A stretch of 64,000 nucleotides of DNA from Scenedesmus sp. PABB004 (taxonomy: Eukaryota): assembly GCA_014905635.1 (NCBI GenBank), contig CM026547.1, forward strand, positions 4,030,001 through 4,094,000, given 5' to 3'. Positions 38,848 through 56,219 of this stretch are shown here, piece after piece. The number at the start of each line of letters is the position of its first letter. The stretch's first letter is position 1. A model generated the notes under the pieces. The model was not told where the DNA came from. It saw only the letters and a list, made by a program, of their open reading frames with translations, and did not search any database. Both the position numbers and the translations under genes were made by a program.

Positions 38848-41245
38848 TCACCCCTCGACAACGGCCGCCGCGGTCGCGTCGTGGATGCGCTGCATGACAG
38901 CGTCCGTCAGCTTGTGGCTCACCTCCAGCGCCTTCATGTTCTCAGCGATCTGCAGCACACCGTCAGCGGGGCACGCGGGCTCAGCGGCGCCGGCGGGCCG
39001 GCGCGGGCGGCGCTTGGGCGCACCTGGTCGACGCGCGTCGCGCCGGTGATGACGGTGCTCACGTTGGGGCCCTTGAGGCACCTGCGGCGCGGCGCCGCGG
39101 CGCGTGGGGCCGCGCGGCAGCCTGGCGCCGCGCCCCGCAGCGCAGCGCAGCGCCGCGCCGCGCGCCCGCCCACCATGCGAGCGCGAGCTGCGCCAGGCTG
39201 CAGCCCAGCTCGTCCGCGATGGGCTTCAGCCGGTCCACGGCCTCCAGCTGCGCGCGGCGGAGGCTGGCGGCGTCGGCCCCTGCTGCCGGTCGGCCGCGTG
39301 CTGCCCCCGCGCCGCGCCGCGCCGCGCCGCGCCGGGCCACGCCGCGCCGCGCCTGCGCGCGCTTCTCGACCAGCTTCTTCTCGGCCAGCCACTTGCGGCG
39401 GCGGGGCGGGGCAGGGAGCGGGCGGGGCGGCGGGTCGGGCGGTGCGCGCCGAAGGCGCCCCGCTGTCTCCGCGCCGCGCTGGTCGCCGCCCGCCGCGCCG
39501 GTCCACACCTTGTACTCTGCCAGCGCGAAGCGGCTGCCGGTGGGGATCTCTCCGCCACTGTACTTGCCGGTCAGGATGCCGCTCTGGGGGGCGGGGCGGG
39601 GGCGGGGCAGGGCGGGGTGCGGCGGGGCGGGGCACGGCGGGGCGGGCAGAGTGCGCGCAGCGTTTGGTCTGGGCGGGCTCGGCACGCGCTGGGTTGCCAG
39701 GCGGCGGCGCGGCGCGCGCCGCACCGCGAGGGGGCTCCACGTGGTCAGGCCTAGGCCGTGGCTGCGGTGGCGGGCCGGGGCGGCGGCGCGGCGGCGGCGC
39801 GTGGCGCGGCGCGGCGCGCGCGCGTGGGGCCAGGCAAGGCCTCGACCCGCCACACACCCGCCCGCCCCGGGCGGCGCGGCACCCACCTGGCATACAGCGG
39901 CTTGAGCTCGACCTCCACCTGTCGGCGGGCGGCGCGGCGCCGTCAGTAGCCGGACGCGCGGGCGTGGCAGGCAGCAGCACAGCAGGGGGGCCGTGCCCGC
40001 GCCGGGGCCACGCGCGCGCGCGCGAGCCGCGCACAAACCTTGTGGCGCGCAAAGATGTTATACTCAGGCTGCTCCATCGCCGGCCCGACCAGGCCCAGGC
40101 GCTCGGACACGCGCCACGCCTGCCGCGTCCGGCGGCGGCGGCGGCTCGCGCGCAGGGCTCGCGCGAGCGAGGGAGGCGCGGGGGCGCGCGCCGGCGCGCG
40201 CGCAACGCGGCGGCGCGGCGTGCACCTCCTGCAGCTGCTCCGCACTCCACTCCGAGGTGCCCCAGTAGAATGCCCAGCCCTGGTCGAGGACAAAGTTCAT
40301 GGCGCGGACCGTCTGCGAGAGCGGCGCGGCGTGAAACGGCAGGCGGCGAACGGCGGGCGAGCGGCGCGCGGTGTGAGCTGCTGCCAGCGCCTGCCCCCCA
40401 CGCGGCGCGGCGGCGCGGCGCGGCGCGGCGCGGCGCGCCTCCTCGATGGGCGTGTCGGGGTCGGGGCGGTGGCAGAAGAGCAGGTCGACGTAGTCAACCT
40501 GCAGCCGCGCGAGGCAGGCCTGCGCCGCGGCGCGGCGGGGCGCGCGCCGCGGCGTGAGGCGCGGCGCCGCGGGGCCTGCGCGGCGCGGCGGCGGGCGGCC
40601 TGCGCGGCAGTGCGCGGCGCGGCGCGGCGGCGGCACCTTGGTGCCCTCGATGATGTGCTTGCGGCTGAGGCCCTTGTCGTTGGGGCCGTCGCCGCCCCAG
40701 AAGACCTGCGCGCGCCCGGCGCCCGCGGCGGCGGCGGGTCAGCGGCGGGCGGGCGCCGCGCCGCGCCGCGCGTGCTGGGCGGGGCCGCGGCCCGTGGCCG
40801 GCCGCGCGCGCGCCTTGGTGGAGAGCACGATGTCGCTGCGCTTCCAGCCGAGCTCCTTGATGGCCTTGCCCATGATCTCCTCCGCCTGGCCCTTGGCGTA
40901 CACCTCGGCGTTGTCAAAGCTGCCGCGGCGGCGGCGGCGCGGGGGAGTGGCGGCGAGCGGGCGGGCGGCTGGGGCGGCGCTCGGGGTGCAGCCCTCACAA
41001 GTTGACGCCCGCCTCGCGGCAGGCCGTGAGGAGCTCCTTCGCTTGCTTGAGAGGGATTTGCGTCCCAAACGTGACCCACGCTCCGAAACTCAGCGCCGAC
41101 ACCTGGCGGAGCGATGCGGCCGGGGCGGCCGCGCGCGATGCGCCGAGCAGCAGCGCGGCGGCGCGCGCCGAGCTGCTGTGCTTATCGGCAGCGCCCCTGC
41201 CACGCGCACCTTCAGGCCGGTCGAGCCGAGGCGCCTGTACTCCAT
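38848..41245 (-). CDS. KAB1: Voltage-gated K+ channel beta-subunit-like aldo-keto reductase; many exons
   Basis: [117 protein letters not shown]. Confidence 0.93.
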
Positions 41246-41566
41246 GGCGGCCGCGGCGAGGGCGGCGAGGGCGGCGGGCGCGCGGCGCTGTCACGGGGCG
41301 GCGCGTGGGGGCGGTGCTGACTGAGGCGCGAGCGTGTGGGCGTGAGGGAAGGGGAGAGCGCGCACAGCGCTGGCGTCTCAAGCAGCGAGCAGAGAACCCT
41401 CGCCGTGTGACGAGCGGGGCCGCTGCGCTACCCGCGAAGCTGCGACGCCGCCGCCGCCACTCTCGCCCTCCCCCCGCCAAGAGCCCTCCCCGGCGCCACG
41501 GGCCCGTGGTCTGGACCGTTCCAGCCCTCGCTCTCGCTTGCGCAGCTCGCGAGTGGCGCGCGCGAG

Positions 41567-42742
41567 ATGGCGGTTGCCGCTGCTGTGGGCGGTGCCGCCA
41601 CAGCAAGGGCGAGCGCCGGGCGGCGCCTGCCGCTGATCAGGGTGCGACGGAACAGCTGTTGCTCAGAACGCTGCCGCAGCCGGTGCCGCCGCCGCGCTCG
41701 CTGCCGGTGCCGCCCGCTGCCGGCGGCAGAGGCAGCCTGCCGCTGCCGACCGCCGCCCGCTCCCGCCGCCCTCCGCTGGCAGGCCCCGCCAGCAGCAGCA
41801 GCAGCAGCAGCAGCAGTCACAGCAGCGGCCGGCGCCGCGCAGCGCGGCCGGCGGCGGGCGGCGGCGCCGCCGCGCGCGGCGCCGCGCAGCGCCAGCGGGG
41901 ACGGCACGCCGGGCGGGCGCCTGGGCGAGGTGCTGGCTGGCATCGACGCGCTCAACGCGCAGGACCCCCGCGTGGTGGAGGTCGACGGCGCGCCGGTGCC
42001 GTACGAGCTCGCGTACAGCCGCTGGCTCTCGGCCTGGGTCGCGAAGCTCGAGCCGGAGCCGTCCGAGGAGCTCACCATCGTCGCGCGGGGGCAGCACGTG
42101 CAGCGCTGGCGCACGCCGCGCAACAGCTTTCCAGAGGTGCGAGCGCGGTGCCCGTGCGGTGCCCGTGCGCCAGCGCGGCCACCGCCGCGCGGCCGCGTGC
42201 GAGCGGGGCGGCCGCGCCGCCGCCGCGCCCCCCACGCCGCAGGGCAAGGCGGGCTACTTTGCATGGCGCGAGGGCCTCAAGCGCGCGCACGCGGGCACCG
42301 TGACGGGGCTCATGGCGGCGGCGGGGTACGACGAGGGCGCGCGCGCGCGCGTGGAGCGCATGATCCTCAAAAAGGACCTCAAGACAGACCCGGAGAACCA
42401 GGCGCGGCGGCCGGGGGGCGCGGGCGAGCCTGCGGGGGGACCTGCGGGGGCGTGCGGGGGCATGCGGGCGCAGCAGCGCAGCGGGGGCTCGTCGGCGGCG
42501 GTGCGCGCGCGCCGCTGCGGCCGCGGCCGCGCTGACGAAAGCCCCCGCGCGCAGGTGGTCGAGGACGCGCTGTGCCTGGTGTTCCTGGAGCGCCAGTTTG
42601 CGGACCTGCTGGCCAAAGAGGGGCCGGACAAGATGCTTGGCATCATCGCCAAGTCGTGGGCCAAGATGGGCGAGCGCGGGCGCGCCGCGGCGCTCGCGCT
42701 GCAGCTGCCGGCCGACCAGGCGGACGTCGTGGCGCGCGCGCT

Positions 42743-42777
<35 letters not shown>

Positions 42778-42782
42778 GCTGA
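41567..42782 (+). CDS. DUF4202 domain protein with organellar targeting-like N-terminus; 3 exons
   Basis: IDALNAQDP...PYELAYS; ARGQHVQRWRTPRNSFPE|GKAGYFAWR; KKDLKTDPENQ|VVEDALCLVFLE; IIAKSWAKM. Confidence 0.85.
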
Positions 42783-42870
42783 GCGCGGCGGCGCCGCCGC
42801 CGCGAATGCGCGTGGGACTGATCTCTGTCCGAGGCGTGGCGCGCGCTGCGCGAGGGTGAGCAACTGATAT

Positions 42871-43114
42871 GATGATGATGAGGCCGGGCACGGCCGCCGC
42901 CGCGCGGAGCAGCGGGCCAATCTCCGCCCGCGCCCGCGCGGCGGCGCGTGCCGTGCCGTGCGCGCGCGATTGATCTCTGTCCGTGGCGTCGCGCGCTCGC
43001 CTGCGCGCGGTTTAACCACCTGGAACCCAGCCCGCGGTTCAGTCGGCAAGGCAAGGCTCCTGCAGCTGGTGCGACAGGCCTCCCCCACCGGGCAAGCACC
43101 CACCCACACACAGA

Positions 43115-43154
<40 letters not shown>

Positions 43155-43517
43155 TGCCGTTGCCAGCGCCCCGACCGCGCCGCGCAGCGCCGCCACAGCG
43201 GGTGCTGCTGCTGCCCCCGCCAGCGCGCTCCCGTGCAGACCGCGTGCCTCTGCATCCGACACGCCCGCCCGCCGCCGGGCTGGGGCGGCATGCAGCGAGG
43301 GCCGGCGGCGCAGCAGCAGCGCCGCGGCCTTTGCGCCCCCGCCGCGCCGGCCTGGCGAGCAGGTGCGGCGCGGCGGCCCCGCGATCGCCTGATGCGCGCG
43401 CCCCCCTCGCCCTTGCCGACGCTCGCTCACGCGCCGCGCCGCGGCCGCCGCGCAGCGCCGGCGCTGCCCGCGCAGCAGCAGCGCTGGCCCCGCGCGGCGC
43501 CGCGCTGCGCGGCGGCG
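42871..43517 (+). repeat. Copy A of a ~640-bp inverted duplication (promoter, 5'UTR, exon 1, intron 1 and start of exon 2 of SCY2)
   Basis: Highly similar to the reverse complement of 51773-52411, for example the shared CGGTTTAACCACCTGGAACCCAGCCCGCGGTTCAGTCGGCAAGGCAAGGCTCCTGCAGCTGGTGCGACAGGCCTCCC. Confidence 0.95.
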
Positions 43518-46212
43518 GCCCTGCAGCAGCCGGGCGTCCCGCAGCAGCTGTGCCGCAGCGGCTCCTGGCGGCGATGCAGCAGCGGTGCCAGACAGGCAGC
43601 AGTCGCAGCGCCGCAGCCGGCGGCGCGCGCCCCTCAGCGGAGCACGGCGGCAGCCGCGTACGCCGCGCATGAGCCGCCCCCGTTCGGCGACGCCGGGTGC
43701 GTGGCGCGCGGGGGCAGCTGCTCGGGGCCAGCAGCCTCGCCGCCGACGCCAGGGCGCGCACCGAGCCTGCCCCACCCCCGCCCCGCCCGTGCGCGCGCCG
43801 CCGCAGCGGCGGCTGGCTCGCGCGGCTCGTGCCCGGCTGGGTGGTGCGCAACCGCACCGTGCTCGCGCGGCTGCTCGTGACGCTGGCGATGCTGGCCGTC
43901 ATACGCCTGGGCTACTTCTTGCCAGTGCCGGGCGTCGACCTCGCCGCGCTGCCCGCCGCGGCGGCGGGCATGGAGGGTGCGCGCGGCAGGCCCCGCCCTC
44001 CCCGCCCCGCCCCTCCCCGCCCCGCGCTCCTCCCATCCCCCTGCCCATGCCGCCGCCGCCGCCGCGCCGGCGCCGCCGGCAGGCGACCGCATGATGCGCG
44101 CGCTGTACGGCCAGTCGCAGGCGCTGCCGGCGAGCGTCTTTGACCTCGGCATCTCGCCCCACATCAACGCATCCATCGTCATGAGCATCCTGCTGCTCCT
44201 CCCAAAGGACCTCCTGCCCTTCGCCTGGGCGACGCGCCTGCGCGACGCGCGCAAGGAGGGCAAGGGGGTGCGCCGCGCCGCGCCGCGGGGCTGCGCCGGC
44301 TGCGCCGGCTGCGCCCGCGCCGCCCCGGCCGTCTCTGAGGCGCCCGCCCCCCTCCCCGCCGCCGCCCCGGCCCTGGCGCACCCCTCCTCCCCAAAAAGGG
44401 TGAGGCGCTGATCAATGACCGCATCAACCAGCTCGCCCTGGCGTTCGCGCTCTACCTGGTGCGGCCGCGGCACGCAGCGCGGCGCCGCCAGCCGCCGCGC
44501 CGGCCGCCGCGCCCCGCGCCGCCCGCCCGCGCCCACCCGCGCCGCGCCCGCCCGCCCGCCGCGGCAGGCGCTGCTGCGCGCGCTGGAGCTCGCGCCGTTT
44601 GCGGCGGCGTCGCAGGGCTTTGTGGCCCAGACGGTGCTCGCGCTGGTGGCAGGCAGCTTCATGATCCACCACTGCGCCAACACCATCACCGCGTCGGGCG
44701 TGGGCAACGGCAGCACGCTCGTCATCTGCATGGGCATCGTCTCAGGTGCGGCGCTGCGCAGCGCGGCCCCACCCCTCGCCCCGCGCCCCGCGCGCCGCGC
44801 GCCGCCGCCTCACGCCTTGCCCCGCGCGCCGCCGCCTCACGCCTTGCCCCGCGTGCCGCCAGAGTACGGGTCGACGCTGCACCAGGTGCTCGTGGGGCTG
44901 GAGGCGTCCAGCCTCGCGCCGCTCGGCCTCGCCGCGCTGCTGGTGGGCTACCTCGGCCTGCTGCTCTTCACCGTCTACCTCGCGAGCAGCGAGGTGCGGC
45001 TGCCGATCGTGCAGTACGCCAAGACGCCGCCGCCGGTGCGTCGCGCGCTGGGCGCGCCGCGCGCTGGGCGCGCTGTGCGCTGCACGCCGCGTCGCGGCGC
45101 GCGCCTCGCCAGCGCGGGCCGCGAGCGCCCCCGCGCGCCGCGCCGCAGGAGCCGCCGCCGCCGGGCGCGCCGCCCGCGGGCGGGCGCGGCGAGCTGCTGT
45201 CGGCCGCGCGCGCGCTGCTCGACCGCAAGGCCAGCGCGGCGGGCAAGCAGGGCGCGCACTTCCCGCTGCTGCTCAACTCCTCGGGCGTCATGGTGCGCCC
45301 TGCGCGGCGCGCGTGTGCATCGCCGCGCGCCGCCGCGCTCCGCCGCGCCCAGGGATGCCACCCCGCCCTCGCCCTCGCCCACGCCACCCCGCCCGCCCCG
45401 CCCCGCCCACCCCGCGCCTCACCTCCCTCACCTCCCTCGCCTCCCTCGCCCCCCTCGCCCCGTGCCAGCCTATGATCGTGGCGAGCGCCGTGTTTTACGG
45501 CATGCTCCCCCGCCTCGCCGAGCTCGTCGGCCTCACCGGCGTCGCGGCCTTCATTACCGGCCTGCAGGCCACCGCCTGGGGCCTGCTCGCGTACGGCGCC
45601 ATCGTGTTTGCCATGGAGTTCCTGCCCTTTGGCGCGGTCAACCCGCCAGAGGTGGCCGAGTACTTCACGATGGTGCGCCGCCGCGCCGCGCGCCGCACGC
45701 GCGTGTGTGTGTGAACCCAACCGCGTCAGCCTCGTTGCCTGCAGGCGTGCACGCCCGCGCGCGCCTCGTCGGTCGCGGGCCAACCGCGAGCTCGCCGCCG
45801 CGCGCGCAGATCGACGTCGGCATCCGCGGCGTCGCGCCGGGCTACGCGACGCAGCAGTTCCTCGCCGCCAAGCTGCGCCAGTGCAAGCTATGGGGCGGGC
45901 TCGCGCTCGCGGGGCTCGCGATCAGCGCAAACCTCTTTGACCAGCTCTGCCTCAGCGTCGTCGGCACGAGCCTCGCCACCACCAGCCTCGTCATCATCGT
46001 GGGCGCCGTCATGCAGACGTCGCGCCAGGTGGGGGCGGGGGCAGCGCGCCGGGCGCGCGGCGCCGCGCGGCGGCCAGCGGCCGGCGGCCGGCGGCGCACA
46101 CCCGCGTGCGCGTCTGCGCGCGCAGATCGAGTCGCTGATGGAGGGCCCGAGGCTGCAGCACAAGCTGGACAGCGAGCGCGCGATCATCCAGTCGCTCTCC
46201 ACGGGCGCGTGA
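43290..46212 (+). CDS. SCY2: Plastid preprotein translocase SecY, SCY2 (inner-envelope Sec2) type; multi-exon
   Basis: RLLVTLAMLAVIRLGYFLPVPGVD; SVFDLGISPHINASIVM; ITASGVGNGSTLVICMGI; HFPLLLNSSGVM|PMIVAS; IRGVAPGYATQQFL...WGGLALAGLA; TTSLVIIVGAV. The divergence pattern fits SCY2 better than SCY1. Confidence 0.85.
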
Positions 46213-46357
46213 GCGAGGGCGTCGGCGGGGGTCGTCACGCGTCCCTCGCCACGTGCCGCACGCCCGCCTGCCGCGTGCGCGTGGCGTTAACCGCTGCTCG
46301 CGCCCAACGGTGCCCAACACCTGCGACCCGCGCGATCGACTGCGGGCAGGGCCAGCG

Positions 46358-48151
46358 ATGCCGGCAGGCCGCTGCGCTGCCGCGGCGCTCAGCGCCGCAC
46401 CGCCGGCGCCGGCGCGTAATCCGCAGCACGCGCAGCGGCGGCGAGGAGGGTCGCGGCTACAGCCACGGCGCCGCGTGGCGGCGCGGTCGGGCGGGCAGGA
46501 GCCGCAGGAGGCGGCGCAGCGCAGCGGCTGGCGCTGGCCGCGCCTGCCCAACCCGTTTGCCGGCGAGGAGAGCGAGTACGAGATCGTGTACGTGACCGAA
46601 ACCGAGGGCGCTGAGGAGCACGAGCACAGGCAGCAAGCCGCCGCGGCGACAGCGGCGCCGCCGGGCGGCGAGCAGCGGCAGCAGCGGGCGGCTGACGCGG
46701 CCGACGCCGAGCCTGGCACGCCTCCCCCAGCACCGCCAGCCGGCGCTACCGAGAGCAGCAGCACGCCAGAGGCGCTGGCGGTCGCAGGGGCGGCGCAGCG
46801 GAGCGCGCGGTGCCGGAGACAGCGGCGGAGGAGCTGGCGACGGGCGCGCTGCCGGCGGCGGCGCCGGCGGCGGCGGGCTACTGGGCGTCGTCTGCGGGCG
46901 GCTGGGTCGTTGCGATGGCGCTGCTGCTGGCGGTGCGGCAGGGCCGGCTGCGCGCGGACGCTGAGCGCCTCGACGTGCGCGCGCTGCAGGCACGGCAGCA
47001 GAGCAGCCGCGTGCAGGTGCGGCCGGCGGCCGGCGGCGGCGCTGGCGGCAGCAGGGAGGAGCGGCGCGGGCAGCGGCAGCAGGGAGATAGGAGGAGGCCG
47101 CCGCTGCCGCCGCGCGCTCACGGCGCGCCGCCGATTGCCGCAGAGCCGCGAGCTGCGTGAGCGGCGCGCGCAGTACCTGCAGGAGCAGGCGGCACTGAAG
47201 GAGGCGGAGGCGGCCAAGCGGTGCGCTTGAGAGGGGTGGAGGGACTTGCAGGCCAGACGCCAGGCGGCGGCGCCTGCGTCGCACGCGCTCCGGCAGCAGC
47301 CTGCGAGCGCGGGCGAGCGCCGCCCGCGCGCACGCCGCCCCCGCCGCCGAGCGCAGGCTCGCGCAGACGGCGCGCCGCGCGCAGCAGGAAAAGGCGGCGG
47401 CGGCGGCGCGCGCGGCAGAATACGAGCGGGCAGTGCGGGAGGAGCTGGAGCTGCTGCGCGCGCGCCGCGCGACGGCCAAGCAGGTCCGCGGCAGCGCGCG
47501 CCGCTCCTGCACCGCCGCACGGGGCCGAGGCGCTGAGGCGGCCCGCGCCACGCGCGCCGCTTCGCCCGGCGCAGGCGTTTGAGCAGGACCAGAGCAAGCT
47601 TGACGAGGAGCTGGCGGCGCGCACGGCGCGCGAGGTCGCGCTACGGGAGGCTGAAGCGGCGCGGCGCGAGGCGGAGGCCGAGGCGGCGAGGTGGGGGGCT
47701 GCGCCGCGAGGCGCGCGGCCTCGCGCAGCGCGCGCCAGGCTTCGCTGTGCTGATGGCGGCCCCCGCCTGGACGCGCGCGCACGCGCAGGGCGGCGGCCAC
47801 TGCAGAGGCGGCGCGCCTCGCCGCCGAGGCCAAGGCGGCGGCGGAGGCCGCGGCGGCGGCGGCGCGCGAGGAGGCGGCGCGGCGGGCGGCGGTCAAGGCT
47901 CAGATGCGAGCGGACAGCACTCGGTGAGGGGGAAAGGCCCAGTGCTGCGTGCCCGGCGTCCTTGCGAGGGGGTGCAGGTGCGAGCCGCGCGCCCTGACGC
48001 TGCGCCGCCGCCGACGCGCTCGCGCGCAGGATCGAGCTGCAGCTGCAGGGCACCGCGACGGCGGCCGCCACGCCCAGCCGGCAGCTCGAGGTCACCGTCA
48101 GCGTCGCGCCCCAGCAGGCCGGCGGTGGCGCTGCTGGCAGCGCCGGCGGCG

Positions 48152-48211
<60 letters not shown>

Positions 48212-50422
48212 GCCTGTTTGACTCGCCAGAGGCGGCGGTGGACGGCGCCACCACGCTGGCGGCCGCCGCCGCGCAGGGGGCAGTCGCGCGGCTCGCTGAC
48301 GCGCTCGAGGCGGCCGCCGCCGACGGCGTCCCCGTCGGCGGCAGCGTCGCAGAGGGCCTCTCGCTCTCGCCGCCCGCCCGCAGCGGCGGCGGGGACGCGT
48401 CACAGCAGCAGGGCTTTGCCGGGCTGAGCCCCGCCGACCTCACGCTCTGGCGCTGGCTCGCCTGCCTCAAGGTCGAGGCCGCCGCGCGCACCGCGGTGGG
48501 CCAAGTCGCGCCGCTGGCGGGCGGCGGCCAGCTGGACCAGCGCTTTGAGGTGGGCCCGCAGCGCGGGGCGCGGGCGCGGGCGGGCGTGCGGCGGGCGTGC
48601 GCGTCCGTGCGGGCTGGGCTGGGGCCCCGGCCAGTGACGCGGCGTGGCGCGCTCGCCCGACCCTGCCCCCTCCCTCCCCTCCCCCGCCGCCGCACGTGGT
48701 TCAGGTGTACGTGCGCTACGCTGCGCTGCCGCCGGGCCACGCGCGCGACCTCGCGGCGCAGCTCGCGCGCGTCGCGGAGCGCGTCGCAGAGGAGCAGCTG
48801 CCGGCGGCCGCCGCCGCGCTCGACGAGCTCGTCTGCTGGGCGCTGCAGGACTTCGCCGCGGCCGGGCCGCGCGACGCCGTGGCGCTGCGTGACGCCGGCG
48901 ACGGCGGCGGCCTGCGCGCGGTGCTGGGGGAGCTGCTGCGCGCGCGCGGTGCCGCCGCGCCAGCGTCAGCCTACCTGGTGCCGGCGTGCGTGTATGCCCT
49001 CCTGCTCAACACCGCGGACGCGGCGACGCAGGCGGCCAATGCCGGCGCCGCGGCGGCGGGCGCGGCGGACGCGGGCGGCGAGGGCGCGCAGGAGCTGCTG
49101 GACGCGGCGGCGCCGCCGGACGGCGACGCGCGGCGCAGCATCGTGGGCGCGCGCGACAGCCCGCTGCAGCGGCTGGTCAAGAGCCAGCTGGAGGCGCTGG
49201 TCCGCGACGCGCCGCAGGACAGCCTCGCCGCGCCGGCGGCGTCGCTCGCGGCGCTGCTGGGGCGGCACCACCCCGTGGCGCGCGCGCTCGCGGCGCTCGC
49301 GGCACGCAACACCAGCCCCGCGGCGCGGCAGGCGCGCGAGGTGCGGCGGCAGCAGCAGCAGCTGGCCAAGGCGACGCAGCTGCTGGAGGTGAGGGGCGGC
49401 GCAGGGGTGCTGCAGCGCGCGCAGAGCGGGAGCGGCCGCGGCGGGCGCGGCGGCCGCAACGCAGGCGGCCGCGCCGCGCGCGGCCCACGCGCGCCCGTCG
49501 CGCTCGGCCTGCGCGCGCCGCGTGCAGGGCTCCGCCCTGGTGGGCCCGGGCGGCCTCGACCCCCAGGAGGCCCGCCTGCGCCAGGCGCTCGTGCCCGTCC
49601 CCGAGCGCACCTGGGCGCTGCGCAACGTGGCCAACAGCATGCTCCGCAGCGCGCCGCCGGCGGCCGGCGGCGACGGCGGCTCCGCGGCGGCCGAGGAGGC
49701 GCTGGGCATGCTGCGCCAGGCGGCCGACCTCGCGGCGGAGCACTACGGCGCGCGGCACCCGGGTGCGGGGCCGGCCCCACCGCCGCCGCTGGCGCGGCGC
49801 CGCCGGGGGCTCGCGGTCGACCCTGTGCCCGCGCGCCGCGCGCGCCCGCTGGGACGCCCACCCGGCCGCCTGAACCCTACCTCGGCCGCGCGCAGGCCAG
49901 CTGTCCACTCTTCTCGACTACGTCGCCGCGCTGCTCGCGGTGCCGGGGCACGCGGCGGCAGCGGCGGCCGCGATCCGCGCGGCGTGCGGCGTCGTGGAGG
50001 CGGTCGGCGAGCGCTACCGGGGCAGTCCGACCTGCTGAGCCTGGTGCTGCTGTACGAGTCGGCGCAGGCGGAGCTGGACGTGCCGGGCGTGCTGCCGCGG
50101 GGCGACACGCTCATGGCGCGCCTGCAGCGTAAGGCCGCCGACGCGTTCGGCGTGCTCGACACGGCGCAGGCCAACCTGGTGCGCTGCTTGGCGCGGCGCG
50201 GCGCGGCGCGGCTGGCAGCGCGCCGCCTGGACGCACAGCGCGCCGCCGCGCCGCACGCAGGTCATGTCCAAGCGCAAGCTGCCGCCCGGGTCGCCCAACA
50301 CGGCGCTGCGCGAGCTCGCGCGCGACTGCACCGAGCAGCTGGGCGTCTACGCCGCCAGCCGCAAGCGCCTGACGCGGCTGGAGCAGTGGAACAAAGACCT
50401 GCCGCTCACGCCGCTGCGGTGA
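46358..50422 (+). CDS. Uncharacterised large protein: transit-like N-terminus, hydrophobic segment, coiled coil, poly-Ser, C-terminal TPR-like helices; multi-exon
   Basis: Consistent GT-AG exon chain with GC3-rich codons. WVVAMALLLAV; ELRERRAQYLQEQAALKEAE; ERTWALRNVANSML...EEALGMLRQAADLAAEHYGARHPG; ends LEQWNKDLPLTPLR with TGA 50420-50422. Confidence 0.65.
48156..48209 (+). repeat. (CAG)18 coding microsatellite, read as AGC poly-Ser
   Basis: Pure CAG run. The exon frame reads GGASSS...SRLFDSPE. Confidence 0.9.
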
Positions 50423-50555
50423 CGGCGGGCGTGCGCGCACGGGCTGCAGCGCTCCCGCTGCTGCTCCCGTGAGCGGCGGCTGGGACGCGGGTGCGCTGAC
50501 CTTTTAACAGCGTGCTGTCATCGCCGCCGGCGCGCCGCCCCTCCCCGCGCCGGCG

Positions 50556-51997
50556 CTACCCAGCGCGAGCCAGGAGCGCCTCCAGCTCCTCCCGGCTTGG
50601 CAGACTGGGCATCGCCCCAGGCCGCGACACGCAGATGCTGGCGGCCGCCGCGGCAAAGGCCATGGCCGCCGCGGGGGGCCGCCCCTCGAGCAGCGCGACG
50701 GCAAAGGCAGCAGTGAAGCAGTCGCCGGCGCCCGTCGTGTCCACCACGCGCGGCGCCGGCACCGCGGGCTGCCGCACCACGGCACCGTCCGGCCCCAGCA
50801 GCATGCTCCCGGCGGCGCCCAGCTTCAGTAGCACGGCGGGCGCGGCGCCGCCGCCGCCGCCGCGCTGCTCCACCGCCGCGCGCTGCAGCGCCGCCGCGGC
50901 CGCCAGCAGCTCCGCCTCGCTGGCCGTCGGCAGCCCGGTGAGGCGCTGCAGCTCCGTCTCGTTGGGGCTTATGACCGTGAGGTGACGCAGCAGCTCGCCC
51001 GACAGCGGCGCGTCGACGCCGCCGGCGTCCAACAGCACCACGGGCACGCCTGCGGCCGCCGCGGCCTGCAGCGCGGGGCAGCAGGGCACGGACGGCGCGG
51101 CGCGCCGGTGCGGTCAGGTCAGGCTCGGCCGCGGCTGCGCGCGCTCGCGGCGCCAGCTCCGCTGGCGGCGGGCACGCTGGAGCTGCTGCTGCCGCCTCGG
51201 CCCACCTCGGCGACCGCGACGTTGACGGCCTCGGGGATCTCTCGCTGCAGCAGCAGCGCGCCCGCACCCGCGATGAGCTGCGCCGCGCGTGCGGCGCCAG
51301 GCGGTGTGCGCGCGCAGCGCGGCGCGGCGCAGCGCGGCGCGGCGCGGCGCGGCGCGGGCGCGAGCGCCGCGCCCGCGCGCACCTGCAGCGCGTCCGCGCT
51401 CAGCTGCCACGCCTCGGGCGCCTGGTTGGCGCCGCCCACGATGATGATGCTGTTCTCCCCCGAGTCCTGCAAGAGGATGACCGCGGTGCCGGTCGGCGCA
51501 ACCACCTCGCGCAGGTGGTTGAGCCGCACGCCCGCGCCCCCGAGCGCGGCGCGCAGCGGCGCGGCGTTGCTGTCCGAGCCGACCGCGCCGACAAAGAACG
51601 TGCCGAAGCTTCGGCCGAGCTTCGCCGCCGCGGCCGCCGTGTTTGCGCCCTTGCCGCCGGGGAACAGCTCGAGCGACGCGGCGCCGATCGTCTCGCCGGG
51701 CGCGGGCAGCCGCTCGACGCGGAGGACGAGGTCGGCGTTCACGCTGCCAACCACCACCAGGGGCTGCGACATCGCCGCCGCGCAGCGCGGCGCCGCGCGG
51801 GGCCAGCGCTGCTGCGCGGGCAGCGCCGGCGCTGCGCGGCGGCCGCGGCGCGGCGCGTGAGCGAGCGTCGGCAAGAGCGAGGGGGGCGCGCGCAGCAGGC
51901 GACCGCGGCACCGCCGCGCCGCACCTGCTCGCCAGGCCGGCGCGGCGGGGGCGCAAAGGCCGCGCCGCTGCTGCTGCGCCGCCGGCCCTCGCAGCAT
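50556..51997 (-). CDS. RBKS: Ribokinase (PfkB family) with an N-terminal transit peptide shared with SCY2; multi-exon
   Basis: VVVGSVNADL; PAPGETI; FPGGKGAN; PTGTAVI; GENSIIIVGGAN; LLLQREIP; SPNETEL; VDTTGAGDCF. Confidence 0.95.
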
Positions 51998-52411
51998 GCC
52001 GCCCCAGCCCGGCGGCGGGCGGGGGTCTCGGATGCCGAGTCACGCGGGCTGCACGGGGGCGCGCTGGCGTGGGCAGCAGCAGCAGCACCCGCGGCGGCGG
52101 CGCCGCGCAGCGCGGTCGGGGACGCTGGCAGCAGCAGCGGCGGCGGCGGCGGCGGCGCGCGCTGTGCATGCGTGTGTGGTGCTGGCCCGGTGCGGGAGGC
52201 CTGTCGCACCAGCTGCAGGAGCCTTGCCTTGCCGACTGAACCGCGGGCTGGGTTCCAGGTGGTTAAACCGCGCGCAGGCGACGAGCGCGACGCCACGGAC
52301 AGAGATCAATCGCGCGCGCACGGCACGGCACGCGCCGCCGCCGTGCGGGCGCGGGCGGAGATTGGCCCGCTGCTCCGCGCGGCGGCGGCCGTGCCCGGCC
52401 TCGTCATCATC
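51773..52411 (-). repeat. Copy B of the ~640-bp inverted duplication (promoter and N-terminus of ribokinase)
   Basis: The reverse complement matches 42871-43517. Similarity stops at the base immediately before the ATG of MSQPLVVVGS (51772-51770). Confidence 0.95.
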
Positions 52412-54503
52412 CAAGTGCGTCCTCCACCGCCGCCGCCTCGCGCCACAAGCAGCACGCGCTCTCCTCTTAAGCTACAGCTCAGAACTCACGCAGCGACAAT
52501 GGGGCGCCAGGGGCGCCAGGGCGCGGGCGCGCCGCCGCCGCGCCCCGCGCCCGTTCTTTTTGAGCGGGAACTGCCACACACAAACGCACCAAGCGCCCAC
52601 ACGGGACAGACGCTCCAACAACGGCAGCAGCAGCACATGCACGCATGCATTCCCGCTCCAGCCAGCCGCCCGCCCATGCCGCCTGCGGGCGCCGCCGCCC
52701 CCGCCGTCCGTCCGCGCCCGCCCCAAAAAGCCGCGACTCGAGTCGGCGGCGCCGGGCGCTCCGTCGTCGACCGCCCCCGCCGCTTGATTGGGCGAGCCAA
52801 GTGTGGGTTTGGGGGAGGTGTAGCAGCCACCATCGCGCCCAGGGGTTTGCCCGACCGCGCACGAGGCGGCCGCCAGCAGCGCACACCACCACCGCGGAGG
52901 CCTGAAGGCCTCGCCGCGAGCAGAGAGCTGAGAGCTGAAGAGATGCAGCGCCAGCGCCGCGAGGGGGGTGCTTGATTGGCGCGCGCGCGCGCCCGGGCAG
53001 CAGCAGGGGCAGGCAGGCCGCCGCCGCCCGCCCAGGCGCGCGCGCGCGGGCGCGGCTCAGCCTGCGGTAAGGGTCTGCAATCGAGCAGCAGGACAGAGGT
53101 AGGTAGGCGTGTGTGTGTGTGTGTGTGCGGGTCGGCCGCCGCGCCACCGGACCGCGCAAGCCCCCCTTGCTCAAAAAAGCGGGGCCGCGCCGCGCCCGAG
53201 GCGAGCGGCCGCGCGTGCACGGCGGGCGAGAGTCGCGCTGCCCGCCTGTCGGTCATGCGTATCGGGTTTTTGTGTCTGGGGCGGCAAGCGGCTGCCTGCG
53301 GCGTCGTCGTCGCGCCGACACTCGCCCATGCTGCACGCACACACATCAGCAGTGGCATGGGCACACCTCCGCGTGCGCGGGGGCTGCAGGGGCGCGCTCC
53401 GCGCGCCATTCTTGGCAGGGTGAGGGATGGGACCGTGCCCCGCCCGCCGACCGCCCCCCCTGCCCCGCCGGGCGCGGGCGCGCGCAACGGTTTGTCTGTG
53501 CGCGCGCCGCCGCCCGCGCCCGCTGCTGCCCGCCTGCCCTGCCCCGCGCGCAGCAGGGCGAGAGAGAGTGTGTGGTGGTGCGCCGACACGCTCAGCTGCA
53601 AGTGCTCAGTGCCGGCGCGCGCGCGCGGCGGGCTGCCACGCGCGCCGCCCGCGCTCGTCCCCAGCAGGGGGCACGCAGTCGCCCCCCTTGGTACTCCTAG
53701 CGGGCGCCGCCGCCTCGCGTGGTGAGAGCCGCGCGGCGGCGCCCCGCACCCTGCCGCCCTGCCTCAGTCGGTCGGTCGGTCCTCCCGCGTCTCCCCAAAA
53801 GCGGCGGCGCCCCGCGCGGGGCCATGCATATCATGGCGCGCTTGGGGGGCCCCCCGCAGACGGCGCGCGACGACACAGACACGCACACGCACACGCACAC
53901 ACATACGCAAGGGAGGAGGGCACACGCGTGTAAGCTGTCATGCGACGGCGCTCCACGCACAACGCACGCGCGCGTCGTCGCACCGGAAAAACACGCCGCC
54001 AAACGGGGGCACGCGCCGCCAGCAGCTGCGCAGTCCTGCAAGACCAGGCGGTGTCGCTCGCCGCCACTCTCGCCGCCCGCGCGCCGCCCAGCAAGATGCC
54101 AGGGCGCGGCGCGCGGGCGGAATGCCACCGCCGTTCGCTCTCGGGCCGGCCAGCAGCAGGGGCAGGGGCAGCATGCACCGCGCGCGCGCGCAGGCGCGCG
54201 GCGCCGCCGCCGCCGCGGGGGCGGCGCGCGCGCGCGCCCGGCGTCGACGGCTCTCGCACCGGGCCCGGGTGCGCCGCTGCCGCGGCGGCGGCGGCGCGCC
54301 CGCGGCGCCACGTCCAAAAAGTCGCTTCATAGGCTAAAAAGCCTCTCTCGGCGCACACCTGCTGCTGCTAACAGAGGCCGGCGGCGCAGGGCCGGCCGGC
54401 GCAAAACGAAGAAGCTGGACCAACGCTAAACGAGGATGGATTCGGCAGGGGTGCATGCAGACGCCGCTCGACTCGATTCTTCTCGCGTGCCCGCCCGGCC
54501 GCG

Positions 54504-56219
54504 CTAGAAGCCGGGCGGGCCGGCGGGCGCAAACACGGCGCTGGGCGAGGTGGGCAGCCACCAGTCCTCCATGCCGGGCAGCCCGGCGCCGCCGAGGGAC
54601 GGCAGCATCGTCGCGCCGCCCGCCGCGAGCGCGCCGCCGTGCGGCGCGGGCACGAGCGCGGGCGACAGGCTGCCGTCGGCCTGCCAGGCGTCGCCGTCGT
54701 GCGCGAGCGCGCCGAGCGCGGGGCTGGCCATGCCGCCCTCCCAGCTGCCCCACGACTCCCAGGCCGCGGCCTCGCCGCCGCTGCTGGACAGCGCGTTGTC
54801 GAGCTCCGCCGGCCCCGCCAGCCAGCTGCTGCCCGTCACGCCGCCGAGCGGCGGCCCGAGCGCCGGCTCCGCGAGCGCCGCCGCCAGGAAGGCGCTGGGC
54901 GCCGAGCCCTGGCGGCGCGCGGGCGCGGCGCGCGGCGCGCCGCCGCCGGCCAGGCTGGTGCGGATGGGCTTCAGGCCTGCGGGGGCGTCAGCCACCGCAG
55001 GCCCCGGCGCGGACGCCGCGCGCTGCGCGGGCGCGCGCGCGCGCGGCGCGCGCGCGCCCTTGCCGCGCGGGCTCGCGCCGCCGGCGCCGGGCGCGGCCGA
55101 CTCGCCGCCGCTGCCCTGGCCCGCGGGCGCGCCCGCGGCCGCGCCGACCGCGGCGTCGCTGCTCGTCGTGCGGGGCGCCTTCCTGGGGCGCGGCGGCGCC
55201 GCGCCGGTGCTCGCGGCGCCGCTGCCGCCGGCGCTGCCGCTGTCGGTGAGGCTGCCGCTGCTGCCGCTGCTCGTCGGCGCGGCGGCGCGCTTGCAGGCCA
55301 CGGTCGGGCGCGGCGGCGCGTTGGCCGCAATGTCGGCGAGGATGCGCACGCTCGGGTCCTGCGCGTCGAGCCAGGCGTTGAAGCCCGGGTCCTCCGCGTG
55401 CATCTTGCACTTGAGGCTGCAGTAGAGGCTGCTCTTGTCCATCATCGCGCGCCCGTCCACGGTGCACTGCGCCGGCGCGGCGGTGCCGTTGTTGGGCTTC
55501 TTCTCGGCCGCAGCCTCGCGGTTGAGGTAGATGACCTTGCTGCCGTTGAGCGTGTACTGCTGCACGCCGCCGATGTCGGCGCCAAAGCGCACGATGTCGG
55601 TCGCCTTGACCACGTCCTTGAAGCTCGCGCGCCGCACCTGCAGCAGGCTGCCCGTGCCGTTGAGCTGGCACTCGGGGCAGTGGCTGCAGAAGACCTTGTG
55701 CGGGGCCTTGGTGTCAAACAGCGTCATCAGCTGCTCGCGCTTCGGCGTGCGCGCGCCGTTGCAGCAGCCGACGCAGGGCGTGAAGTAGGAGGGGAAGGTG
55801 ACGAGGCGGTACAGCCACTCGCGCGGCCCGCCGCTGCCGGGGGCCGTGCCCGGCCCGCCGCCGGGCGCGCACGCCGCGTGGCCGCAGCCCGCCGCCGCCG
55901 CCGCGCCGGCGTGGCCGGGCATCATGCTCGCCACGCCGCTGCCGCGGCCGCCCGCGGCGCTGCCCGCGCTGCCCGCGCCGCCGCTCGCGGGCGTGCCGGA
56001 CGTCGCGCGCGACGCCGGCGCCGCCGCCGCGCCGCCGCTGGCGCCGCCGAGCGCGGTGCCGGTGGAGCAGCTGCTCGCGGGCGGGCTGATGCTGCCGACG
56101 CCGCAGAGCGCCGGCTGCTGCTGGGCGCACTCGCCGGCAAAGGGCGAGAAGCCCGCGGCCGCGGCGCCGGGCTTGCCGCCGGGCAGCGCCGGCAGCGCAA
56201 ACATGCCGGCAGCAGACAT
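54504..56219 (-). CDS. PLATZ-family zinc-binding transcription factor with divergent ligands
   Basis: WL...YFTPC; FCSHC; LLQVRRASFKDVVKATDI; DIGGVQQYTLNGSKVIYLN; C-x(13)-CSLKCK. An acceptor at 56223 and a CAG|GTAAG donor at 56697 indicate an upstream exon, so the true start may lie further 5'. Confidence 0.88.
   Translation of the reverse strand: MSAAGMFALPALPGGKPGAAAAGFSPFAGECAQQQPALCGVGSISPPASSCSTGTALGGASGGAAAAPASRATSGTPASGGAGSAGSAAGGRGSGVASMMPGHAGAAAAAGCGHAACAPGGGPGTAPGSGGPREWLYRLVTFPSYFTPCVGCCNGARTPKREQLMTLFDTKAPHKVFCSHCPECQLNGTGSLLQVRRASFKDVVKATDIVRFGADIGGVQQYTLNGSKVIYLNREAAAEKKPNNGTAAPAQCTVDGRAMMDKSSLYCSLKCKMHAEDPGFNAWLDAQDPSVRILADIAANAPPRPTVACKRAAAPTSSGSSGSLTDSGSAGGSGAASTGAAPPRPRKAPRTTSSDAAVGAAAGAPAGQGSGGESAAPGAGGASPRGKGARAPRARAPAQRAASAPGPAVADAPAGLKPIRTSLAGGGAPRAAPARRQGSAPSAFLAAALAEPALGPPLGGVTGSSWLAGPAELDNALSSSGGEAAAWESWGSWEGGMASPALGALAHDGDAWQADGSLSPALVPAPHGGALAAGGATMLPSLGGAGLPGMEDWWLPTSPSAVFAPAGPPGF

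Follow-up and report, generated by a model that had tools for sequence, protein, structure and literature searches.

The window analysed here, a stretch of 64,000 nucleotides (nt) on contig CM026547.1 of Scenedesmus sp. PABB004, holds a gene for a SecY protein of the SCY2 type and, about 8 kilobases (kb) away, a gene for a ribokinase. As read from the sequence, one 5' module has recently been duplicated in front of these two unrelated genes. The structural reading that we favour, with moderate confidence, is that of a real duplication with SCY2 as the parent, whose copy was placed at the ribokinase's own start codon.

The module pair was compared by repeat search, MAFFT alignment and blastn, which alike recovered copy A at 42871-43517 on the plus strand and copy B at 52411-51773 on the minus strand, ~8.3 kb apart and in opposite orientation. 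Copy A, probably the parent, comprises the SCY2 upstream region, the first ATG and a putative exon 1, and also spans a putative intron of 93 nt and the first 62 nt of exon 2. Copy B (51773-52411, inverted) abuts the ribokinase start codon: the similarity stops at 51773, and the ribokinase ATG at 51772 (MSQPLVVVGS) is the next base. Blastn gives 91.5% identity over 656 columns, gaps counted, and MAFFT, counted per segment, gives 630 aligned columns with 30 substitutions (95.2% identical) and 26 gap columns in 7 gap events. Fifteen of the 26 gap columns fall into the microsatellite segment 43100-43165, where a GCC microsatellite of the presumed leader (43113-43160, plus strand) is ~14 nt shorter in copy B. 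The edges of the repeat are sharp, with mismatches in 53 of 89 flanking columns on the left and 45 of 81 on the right, and the flanks of the two copies are unrelated in sequence.

Comparison of the whole window with itself by blastn revealed no other pair of at least 120 base pairs (bp) at 85% identity or more within the 64 kb, which are rich in G and C (~80% GC) throughout. The genome of Scenedesmus sp. PABB004 is given in an excerpt of a comparative paper as 39.8 Mb with 78.5% GC and 1.31% repeats (PMC12571836); because of this low repeat content, a repeat of 640 bp is unusual in the strain. The first-pass annotation of this DNA had described near-identical inverted copies pointing inward, each with a CCAAT upstream, start codons at 43290 and 51997, the peptides M(Q/L)RGPAAQQQRRGLCAPAAPAWRA and PALPAQQ(Q)RWPRAAPRCAAA, and a similarity that ends immediately before the in-frame ribokinase ATG. 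All of these features were recovered, the CCAAT in both copies, and the alignment of the copies that it had proposed is the one with 30 substitutions in 630 columns.

Both gene identities given earlier, SecY2 and ribokinase, agree with the Pfam and NCBIfam matches. A Pfam scan of 117 stop-to-stop open reading frames (ORFs) from ~41 to 54 kb of the window returned SecY, PfkB and DUF4202 only, with the SecY matches (PF00344) on the plus strand at 43881-46592. Tblastn with the relatives P0126-P0128 (43808-46203) outlines a SCY2-type SecY body of ~9 exons at 43807-46212 on the plus strand, closed by a TGA at 46210-46212. The homology to SecY begins at ~43808, ~290 nt past the end of the repeat, and no ATG precedes the conserved part in the ORF (43673-44140) that contains the first conserved exon of SecY. 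SCY2 consequently needs an upstream exon. The frame of the ATG at 43290 is free of stops up to a donor cgg/GTGCGT at 43697, and splicing to the acceptor CAG/ at 43806 would continue it, in phase, into GGWLARLVPGW..., where the conserved part begins; the putative intron of 110 nt between them (43697-43806, plus strand) thereby connects the frame of the first ATG to that of the conserved SecY. The putative exon 2 ahead of it (43456-43696, plus strand) has only 43456-43517 in common with copy B and continues beyond 43517 as a SCY2-specific N-terminal extension up to the donor. Since the only ATGs in the SCY2 frame are those at 43290 and 43392, the start codon of SCY2 lies inside the repeat. Long N-terminal extensions are also found in full-length SCY2 relatives, namely P0128, P0130 and the ORFs of two metagenomic loci, L001 and L002.

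A second indication of ownership comes from the outer side of copy A. At 42783-42862 on the plus strand, outside the repeat and on the A side only, lies a diverged tandem relic of the module segment 42936-43012. The 19-nt motif TGATCTCTGTCCGTGGCGT has three matches in the window against 0.03 expected, one each in the relic, copy A and copy B, and outside copy B nothing resembles the relic. Because the relic adjoins copy A and has no counterpart outside copy B, copy A is taken as the native one, and the SCY2 side is probably the parent of the module. The direction from SCY2 to ribokinase, suggested in the first-pass annotation, is thus the likelier one: the SCY2 frame needs the ATG of the module, and the relic sits beside copy A.

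Concerning the SecY protein itself, the relative P0126 matches TIGR00967 with an E value of 7.5e-52 and 176.6 bits, under this bacterial model's cut-off of 253.6. Its nearest streptophyte cluster in the Atlas is 'SCY2, chloroplastic' (features 0.92, TM 0.79), which is a lead and not a tree. Arabidopsis SCY2 is described as an inner-envelope protein in the excerpted text of PMC5853536. Searches of a collection of 5.8 billion proteins returned none identical to the SecY2 exons of the window, the best match being 89% identical and from another Scenedesmus; the public annotation may lack the SecY2 gene or give a wrong model of it, unlike the neighbouring ribokinase, whose protein is there in exact form. 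Within the SecY2 intron 44746-44862 there is a 27-nt tandem repeat, of two copies 97% identical, at 44793-44849.

The ribokinase gene occupies 50556-51772 on the minus strand. Its three exons (51772-51383, 51277-51206 and 51065-50559, followed by a TAG at 50558-50556) exactly reproduce the NCBI protein HT031_000780 of Scenedesmus sp. PABB004 (P0006, 323 residues), and PfkB matches extend over 50559-52039 on the minus strand. The best NCBIfam match is TIGR02152 (ribokinase), with an E value of 1.2e-69 over residues 6-316 of 323 and a score of 234.9 bits, short of the 299.65 set as the curated cut-off of this bacterial model; the orthologues carry the name ribokinase in their records. Since TIGR02152 aligns from residue 6, the public model has no spare N-terminus. 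Among the 120 ribokinase homologues listed (P0006-P0125), 113 bear the motif of the first strand, and 82 of these 113 have fewer than 30 residues ahead of it, the other 31 having at least 30. With an ATG at the point where most of its homologues begin, the ribokinase gives the impression of a recipient whose original start codon was retained.

Beyond copy B, the ~2.2 kb of 52412-54575 show no coding periodicity, have stops in several minus-strand frames and reach the lowest GC content of the window. In them, CCAATCAAGC occurs twice on the minus strand, near 52795 and near 52975, and a (CA)n stretch is located around 53110. The region may represent the original ribokinase promoter region or old leader.

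Under the structural reading that we favour, a young local inverted segmental duplication of ~640 bp, beginning 88 nt past the stop of the adjoining DUF4202 gene, would have placed a copy 8.3 kb away, inverted, between the old leader of the ribokinase and its existing ATG at 51772. It probably arose by template switching or ectopic repair between the two genes, neighbours even then. Such a local event is plausible because SCY2 and ribokinase are old neighbours, as the following comparison indicates.

A SecY2 alignment, run against JGI metagenome contigs, picked out three loci. On L001 (2567-8035) and L002 (9119-14758), SecY2 and ribokinase stand in tandem, in that order and on one strand, their reading frames 1.6-1.9 kb apart; these two algal contigs, unrelated to the window otherwise, have 74-76% GC and intronless genes. 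Neither L001 nor L002 has a further gene in common with the window at an E value of 1e-8, and neither contains an internal repeat reaching 80 bp and 80% identity. In Monoraphidium minutum, the SecY and ribokinase records give an equal longest contig, 418,868, which suggests that both genes are on one contig. SCY2 and ribokinase thus look like old neighbours, a pair conserved across distant green algae without an obvious functional link. In the window, SCY2 and a further gene (gene X) lie on the plus strand and ribokinase on the minus strand, which differs in order and orientation from the tandem on L001 and L002; the neighbourhood was therefore rearranged at some time.

The genes around the pair are as follows. 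The DUF4202 gene, assigned by Pfam, is located at 41411-42782 on the plus strand and its TGA (42780-42782) lies 88 nt ahead of copy A. Gene X, a multi-exon gene between SCY2 and ribokinase, extends from about 46400 to 50470 on the plus strand, both bounds being approximate. No Pfam family matched it, and its best score in the Atlas search (0.84) was to chlorophyte TPR-like clusters, a lead only. It contains a long CAG run at 48148-48213.

A micro-inversion is, in our view, the best of the alternatives and yet unlikely. Staggered breaks at the ends of the 8.3-kb segment would have duplicated the sequence between the nicks; the shared peptide would be incidental, the ribokinase would use the ATG at 51772, and copy B would give it no more than a new upstream region. 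The segment is indeed bordered by inverted duplicates of a sequence that is otherwise unique, as the staggered-break model predicts, an imperfect palindrome lies at the outer edge of the module, and in Drosophila inverted duplicates were found at 17 of 29 inversions, according to an excerpt of PMC1885836. The difference in order and orientation from the tandem on L001 and L002 also points this way, but inverting both gene bodies keeps their relative orientation, so that this contrast is no test. Furthermore, each variant of the model meets a difficulty. With the module native on the right, only ~88 nt would have lain between the DUF4202 stop and the ribokinase ATG in the ancestor, and the relic beside copy A would have no explanation. 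If it was native on the left as the ribokinase's module, an orphan SCY2 5' exon would be expected beyond copy B, where the DNA looks non-coding.

It is improbable, in our view, that the transfer ran the other way, with the module being the promoter and presequence of the ribokinase, captured by SCY2. This would accord with the long N-terminal extensions in 31 of 113 ribokinase homologues, 18 of these 31 with a proximal methionine, and with the report, in an excerpt of PMC12589546, that a plant ribokinase acts in plastids. SCY2, however, would have had to lose its own start and to fuse in frame, and its frame has no ATG downstream of the repeat; the relic marks copy A as native, and the similarity stops exactly at a start codon that is also used by the homologues.

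An assembly artefact, in which one copy would be absent from the organism, is very improbable. Chimeric long reads can create inverted repeats a few kb apart, but here 30 substitutions and 7 gap events set the copies apart, and each is joined to unique sequence on both sides with both genes intact. Among the 8 pieces listed of the 351 in one DNA run (X1, share 0.05), none bridges a repeat junction; the X1 pieces are near-identical contigs of 159-260 nt (e.g., 44083-44208, 45462-45721 and 52717-52877), and its 'joints' have sides of 20-31 nt and look like GC-rich noise.

That the module belongs to a dispersed mobile family, as a transposon end or as the mobile targeting cassette that the first-pass annotation had envisaged, is scarcely credible: two copies in inverse orientation are all that speaks for it, against which stand the lack of a third copy within 64 kb and of a target-site duplication at the edges, the restriction of Pfam matches among the 117 ORFs to SecY, PfkB and DUF4202, the 0 matches of the encoded peptide in 1.84 billion representatives and the 1.31% repeats reported for the genome (PMC12571836, excerpt). 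A transposon with terminal inverted repeats was rejected for similar reasons: neither a target-site duplication nor a third copy within the window was found, and none of the 117 ORFs has a transposase domain. Inspection of the junctions by eye for microhomology or a target-site duplication gave nothing convincing.

The internal layout of the module bears on what copy B may do for the ribokinase. Its distal block (42871-43099, plus strand), a candidate promoter, is the best-conserved part, with 4 substitutions in 229 columns, and contains the CCAAT within an imperfect palindrome, the 19-nt motif and an ORF of 31-34 codons. The palindrome, long and imperfect with the CCAAT in its loop, is situated at the outer edge of the module (42882-42960) and is a possible fork-stalling or break site. 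An (ATG)n run opens the ORF at the outer edge of both copies (42869-42973 on the plus strand, 52410-52306 on the minus strand), whose peptide reads M(M)(M)(M/T)RPGTAAAARSSGPISARAR(T)AAARAVPCARD; a 3-nt indel between the copies preserves its frame. This ORF could be a product of chance in GC-rich DNA or an upstream ORF. With fold z-scores of -2.2 on the plus and -2.8 on the minus strand, the folding signal of the distal block is too weak for a structured RNA. Likewise, a known RNA was rejected for the module, as an Rfam search over 42000-53500 with E values up to 1 gave two sub-threshold chance matches, none within the module; a tRNA scan of 40000-56000 found none.

Downstream of the presumed leader follow the putative SCY2 exon 1 of 73 nt with the first ATG of the frame (43290-43362, plus strand; 51997-51925 in copy B) and the putative 93-nt intron cag/GTGCGG...GCGCAG/ (43363-43455, plus strand; 51924-51832 in copy B). 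'Exon' and 'intron' are readings here, and splicing is putative. The splice words of the putative module intron match other introns of the locus: a donor GTGCG scores best in 7 of 8 gaps between high-scoring segment pairs of SCY2 and is one of the two exact ribokinase donors. Intron lengths at the locus are 105-176 nt. Since the 93-nt stretch has a length divisible by three and contains no in-frame stop in either copy, the reading frame does not depend on an intron here.

For the ribokinase, the module provides an in-frame, stop-free extension at 51773-51997 on the minus strand, of 75 codons unspliced and 44 with the 93-nt intron removed. The ATG at 51997 is in frame with that at 51772, the intervening codons are open, and one indel, of 3 nt, separates the copies in this interval. 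Substitutions between the copies are unevenly spread, with 4/229 in the distal block, 11/124 in the leader, 2/73 in exon 1, 5/93 in the 'intron' and 0/59 in exon 2; pooled, the exons and the distal block diverge less than the 'intron' and the leader (Fisher p=0.001). This unevenness fits a functional layout and lends mild support to a use of the peptide.

The arrangement of two ATGs noted in the first-pass annotation exists and, moreover, echoes a pattern in the ribokinase homologues. In 18 of the 31 long-form homologues a methionine lies within 16 residues of the catalytic domain, and the methionine density of the long forms is 3.8% in these last 16 residues versus 1.3% further upstream (p=0.001). 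Because the proximal methionine is enriched in the long forms, a distal plus a proximal start recurs in the ribokinase family, at the level of predicted proteins. This suggests that alternative starts, possibly with dual localisation, are widespread in green-lineage ribokinases, the proteins being predicted.

A number of observations weigh against a use of the shared peptide by the ribokinase. An in-frame and open upstream ATG has a chance expectation of ~0.2, i.e., one third for the frame times ~0.59 for a stop-free stretch of 75 codons, the latter estimated from counts in the window. The public model HT031_000780 starts at the ATG at 51772 and lacks the shared peptide. Comparing the exons with the intron alone, 2/132 versus 5/93 substitutions are not significantly different (p=0.13), and patchy gene conversion between the inverted arms would give the same mosaic without selection. 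As to splicing, CAGGTGCG occurs 0.24 times and GCGCAG 2.75 times per kb per strand in this DNA. GC content by codon position reveals no periodicity in the module; it reveals none in the SCY2-specific N-terminal exon either, and for this reason the measure is without discriminating power. A phmmer search with the N-terminal 135 residues of SCY2 against 1.84 billion representatives gave 0 matches, so nothing independently marks the peptide as a conserved presequence. The ribokinases of L001 and L002 have the proximal methionine only and no presequence; a plastid ribokinase is thus not obligatory in green algae. Finally, an ATG exclusive to copy B (52169-52167, minus strand) is out of the ribokinase frame and opens at least 200 codons. 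It would be harmful in an mRNA leader, which hints at a transcription start downstream of 52169.

The composition of the peptide belongs to the same side. Stop-free stretches in all six frames of the window are acid-free in 30% of cases at 45 residues and in 16% at 75 residues, and the six-frame composition of the window is 21% Arg and 22% Ala. An acid-free, Arg/Ala-rich sequence is therefore the background of this DNA, and its resemblance to a transit peptide, to which the first-pass annotation had appealed, carries no weight. From the recent module capture proposed there, we retain the duplication before two unrelated genes and the likelier direction, and drop the composition and the open upstream ATG as evidence.

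On this balance, the shared extension may well be translated in the ribokinase, although we lean slightly towards the opposite view. Copy B may, to about the same degree, supply the ribokinase with its promoter and leader. Transcripts from copy B would have 51997 as their first in-frame AUG and would fuse the N-terminal peptide of SCY2 (44 or 75 residues) to the ribokinase, with the old AUG at 51772 as a second start. That the shared peptide imports part of the ribokinase into the plastid is possible but rather doubtful. Less likely still is the full arrangement, in which copy B would be a working promoter and presequence cassette, with co-expression with SCY2 and two forms of ribokinase from two AUGs, a plastid form with SCY2 residues 1-44 or 1-75 and a cytosolic form from the old AUG. 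The twin-start design of other green-lineage ribokinases would then have been rebuilt with borrowed parts. On that reading, recombination between the arms could also flip the 8.3-kb segment harmlessly, because both genes begin with the same module.

The gain or swap of organelle-targeting peptides and promoters has mostly been reconstructed from old, eroded cases. Here, both donor and recipient can be seen, at 95% identity, each junction can be placed with single-base precision, and the start codon that the recipient had originally has been preserved. Should the fusion be borne out by transcripts and import, a green alga would offer a rare instance 'caught in the act', and the locus would serve as a simple test bed in which a membrane translocase and a soluble kinase bear one and the same peptide. 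Should transcription of the ribokinase begin downstream instead, the locus would be no more than a neutral structural variant.

Among known systems, the nearest counterpart is nuclear rpl32, which took the transit peptide of the Cu-Zn SOD1 in Populus and other Malpighiales, as an excerpt of PMC8018952 describes. In both cases, mature proteins unrelated to each other have in common an N-terminal coding segment whose source is the gene of a plastid protein; in ours, homologous N-terminal DNA lies on two genes whose mature parts are SecY and PfkB. They differ in that the copy here is young (95% identical) and includes ~420 bp of upstream DNA, that only 8 kb separate the donor from the recipient, a neighbour in the inverse orientation, and that the module arrived at a nuclear gene already resident there with a start codon of its own, not at an organelle gene newly transferred. 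Translation and import are putative in our case.

The inverted arrangement recalls the staggered-break duplicates of Drosophila, for which the excerpted text of Ranz et al. 2007 (PMC1885836) gives a median of 321 bp, a maximum of ~1.9 kb and ~88% identity. Here, too, a segment is bordered on either side by inverted copies of a unique sequence that measure a few hundred bp. Many of the Drosophila duplicates decay, as far as this excerpt describes them, whereas here both sit at apparently working 5' ends, and each variant of the model leaves one feature of the locus unexplained.

Exon shuffling, alternative in-frame starts and 'twinned' presequences are treated together in a review (PMC7456531, in the excerpt at hand). 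Classical intron-mediated exon shuffling was rejected, as the copy ends in an open exon, one base before the ATG at 51772, and the junction between module and recipient is thus not in an intron. The twinned-presequence arrangement is closer, with a distal ATG, an extension and a proximal ATG directly before the catalytic domain; it differs in that the distal part here is borrowed from another gene, and the use of either start is putative. The literature naming strain PABB004, among the matches listed, contains nothing on this locus, no wider search for the locus having been made. The capture of a 5' region or presequence by duplication is already known; a young and local case, with the upstream DNA included and the recipient's start codon kept, would be new.

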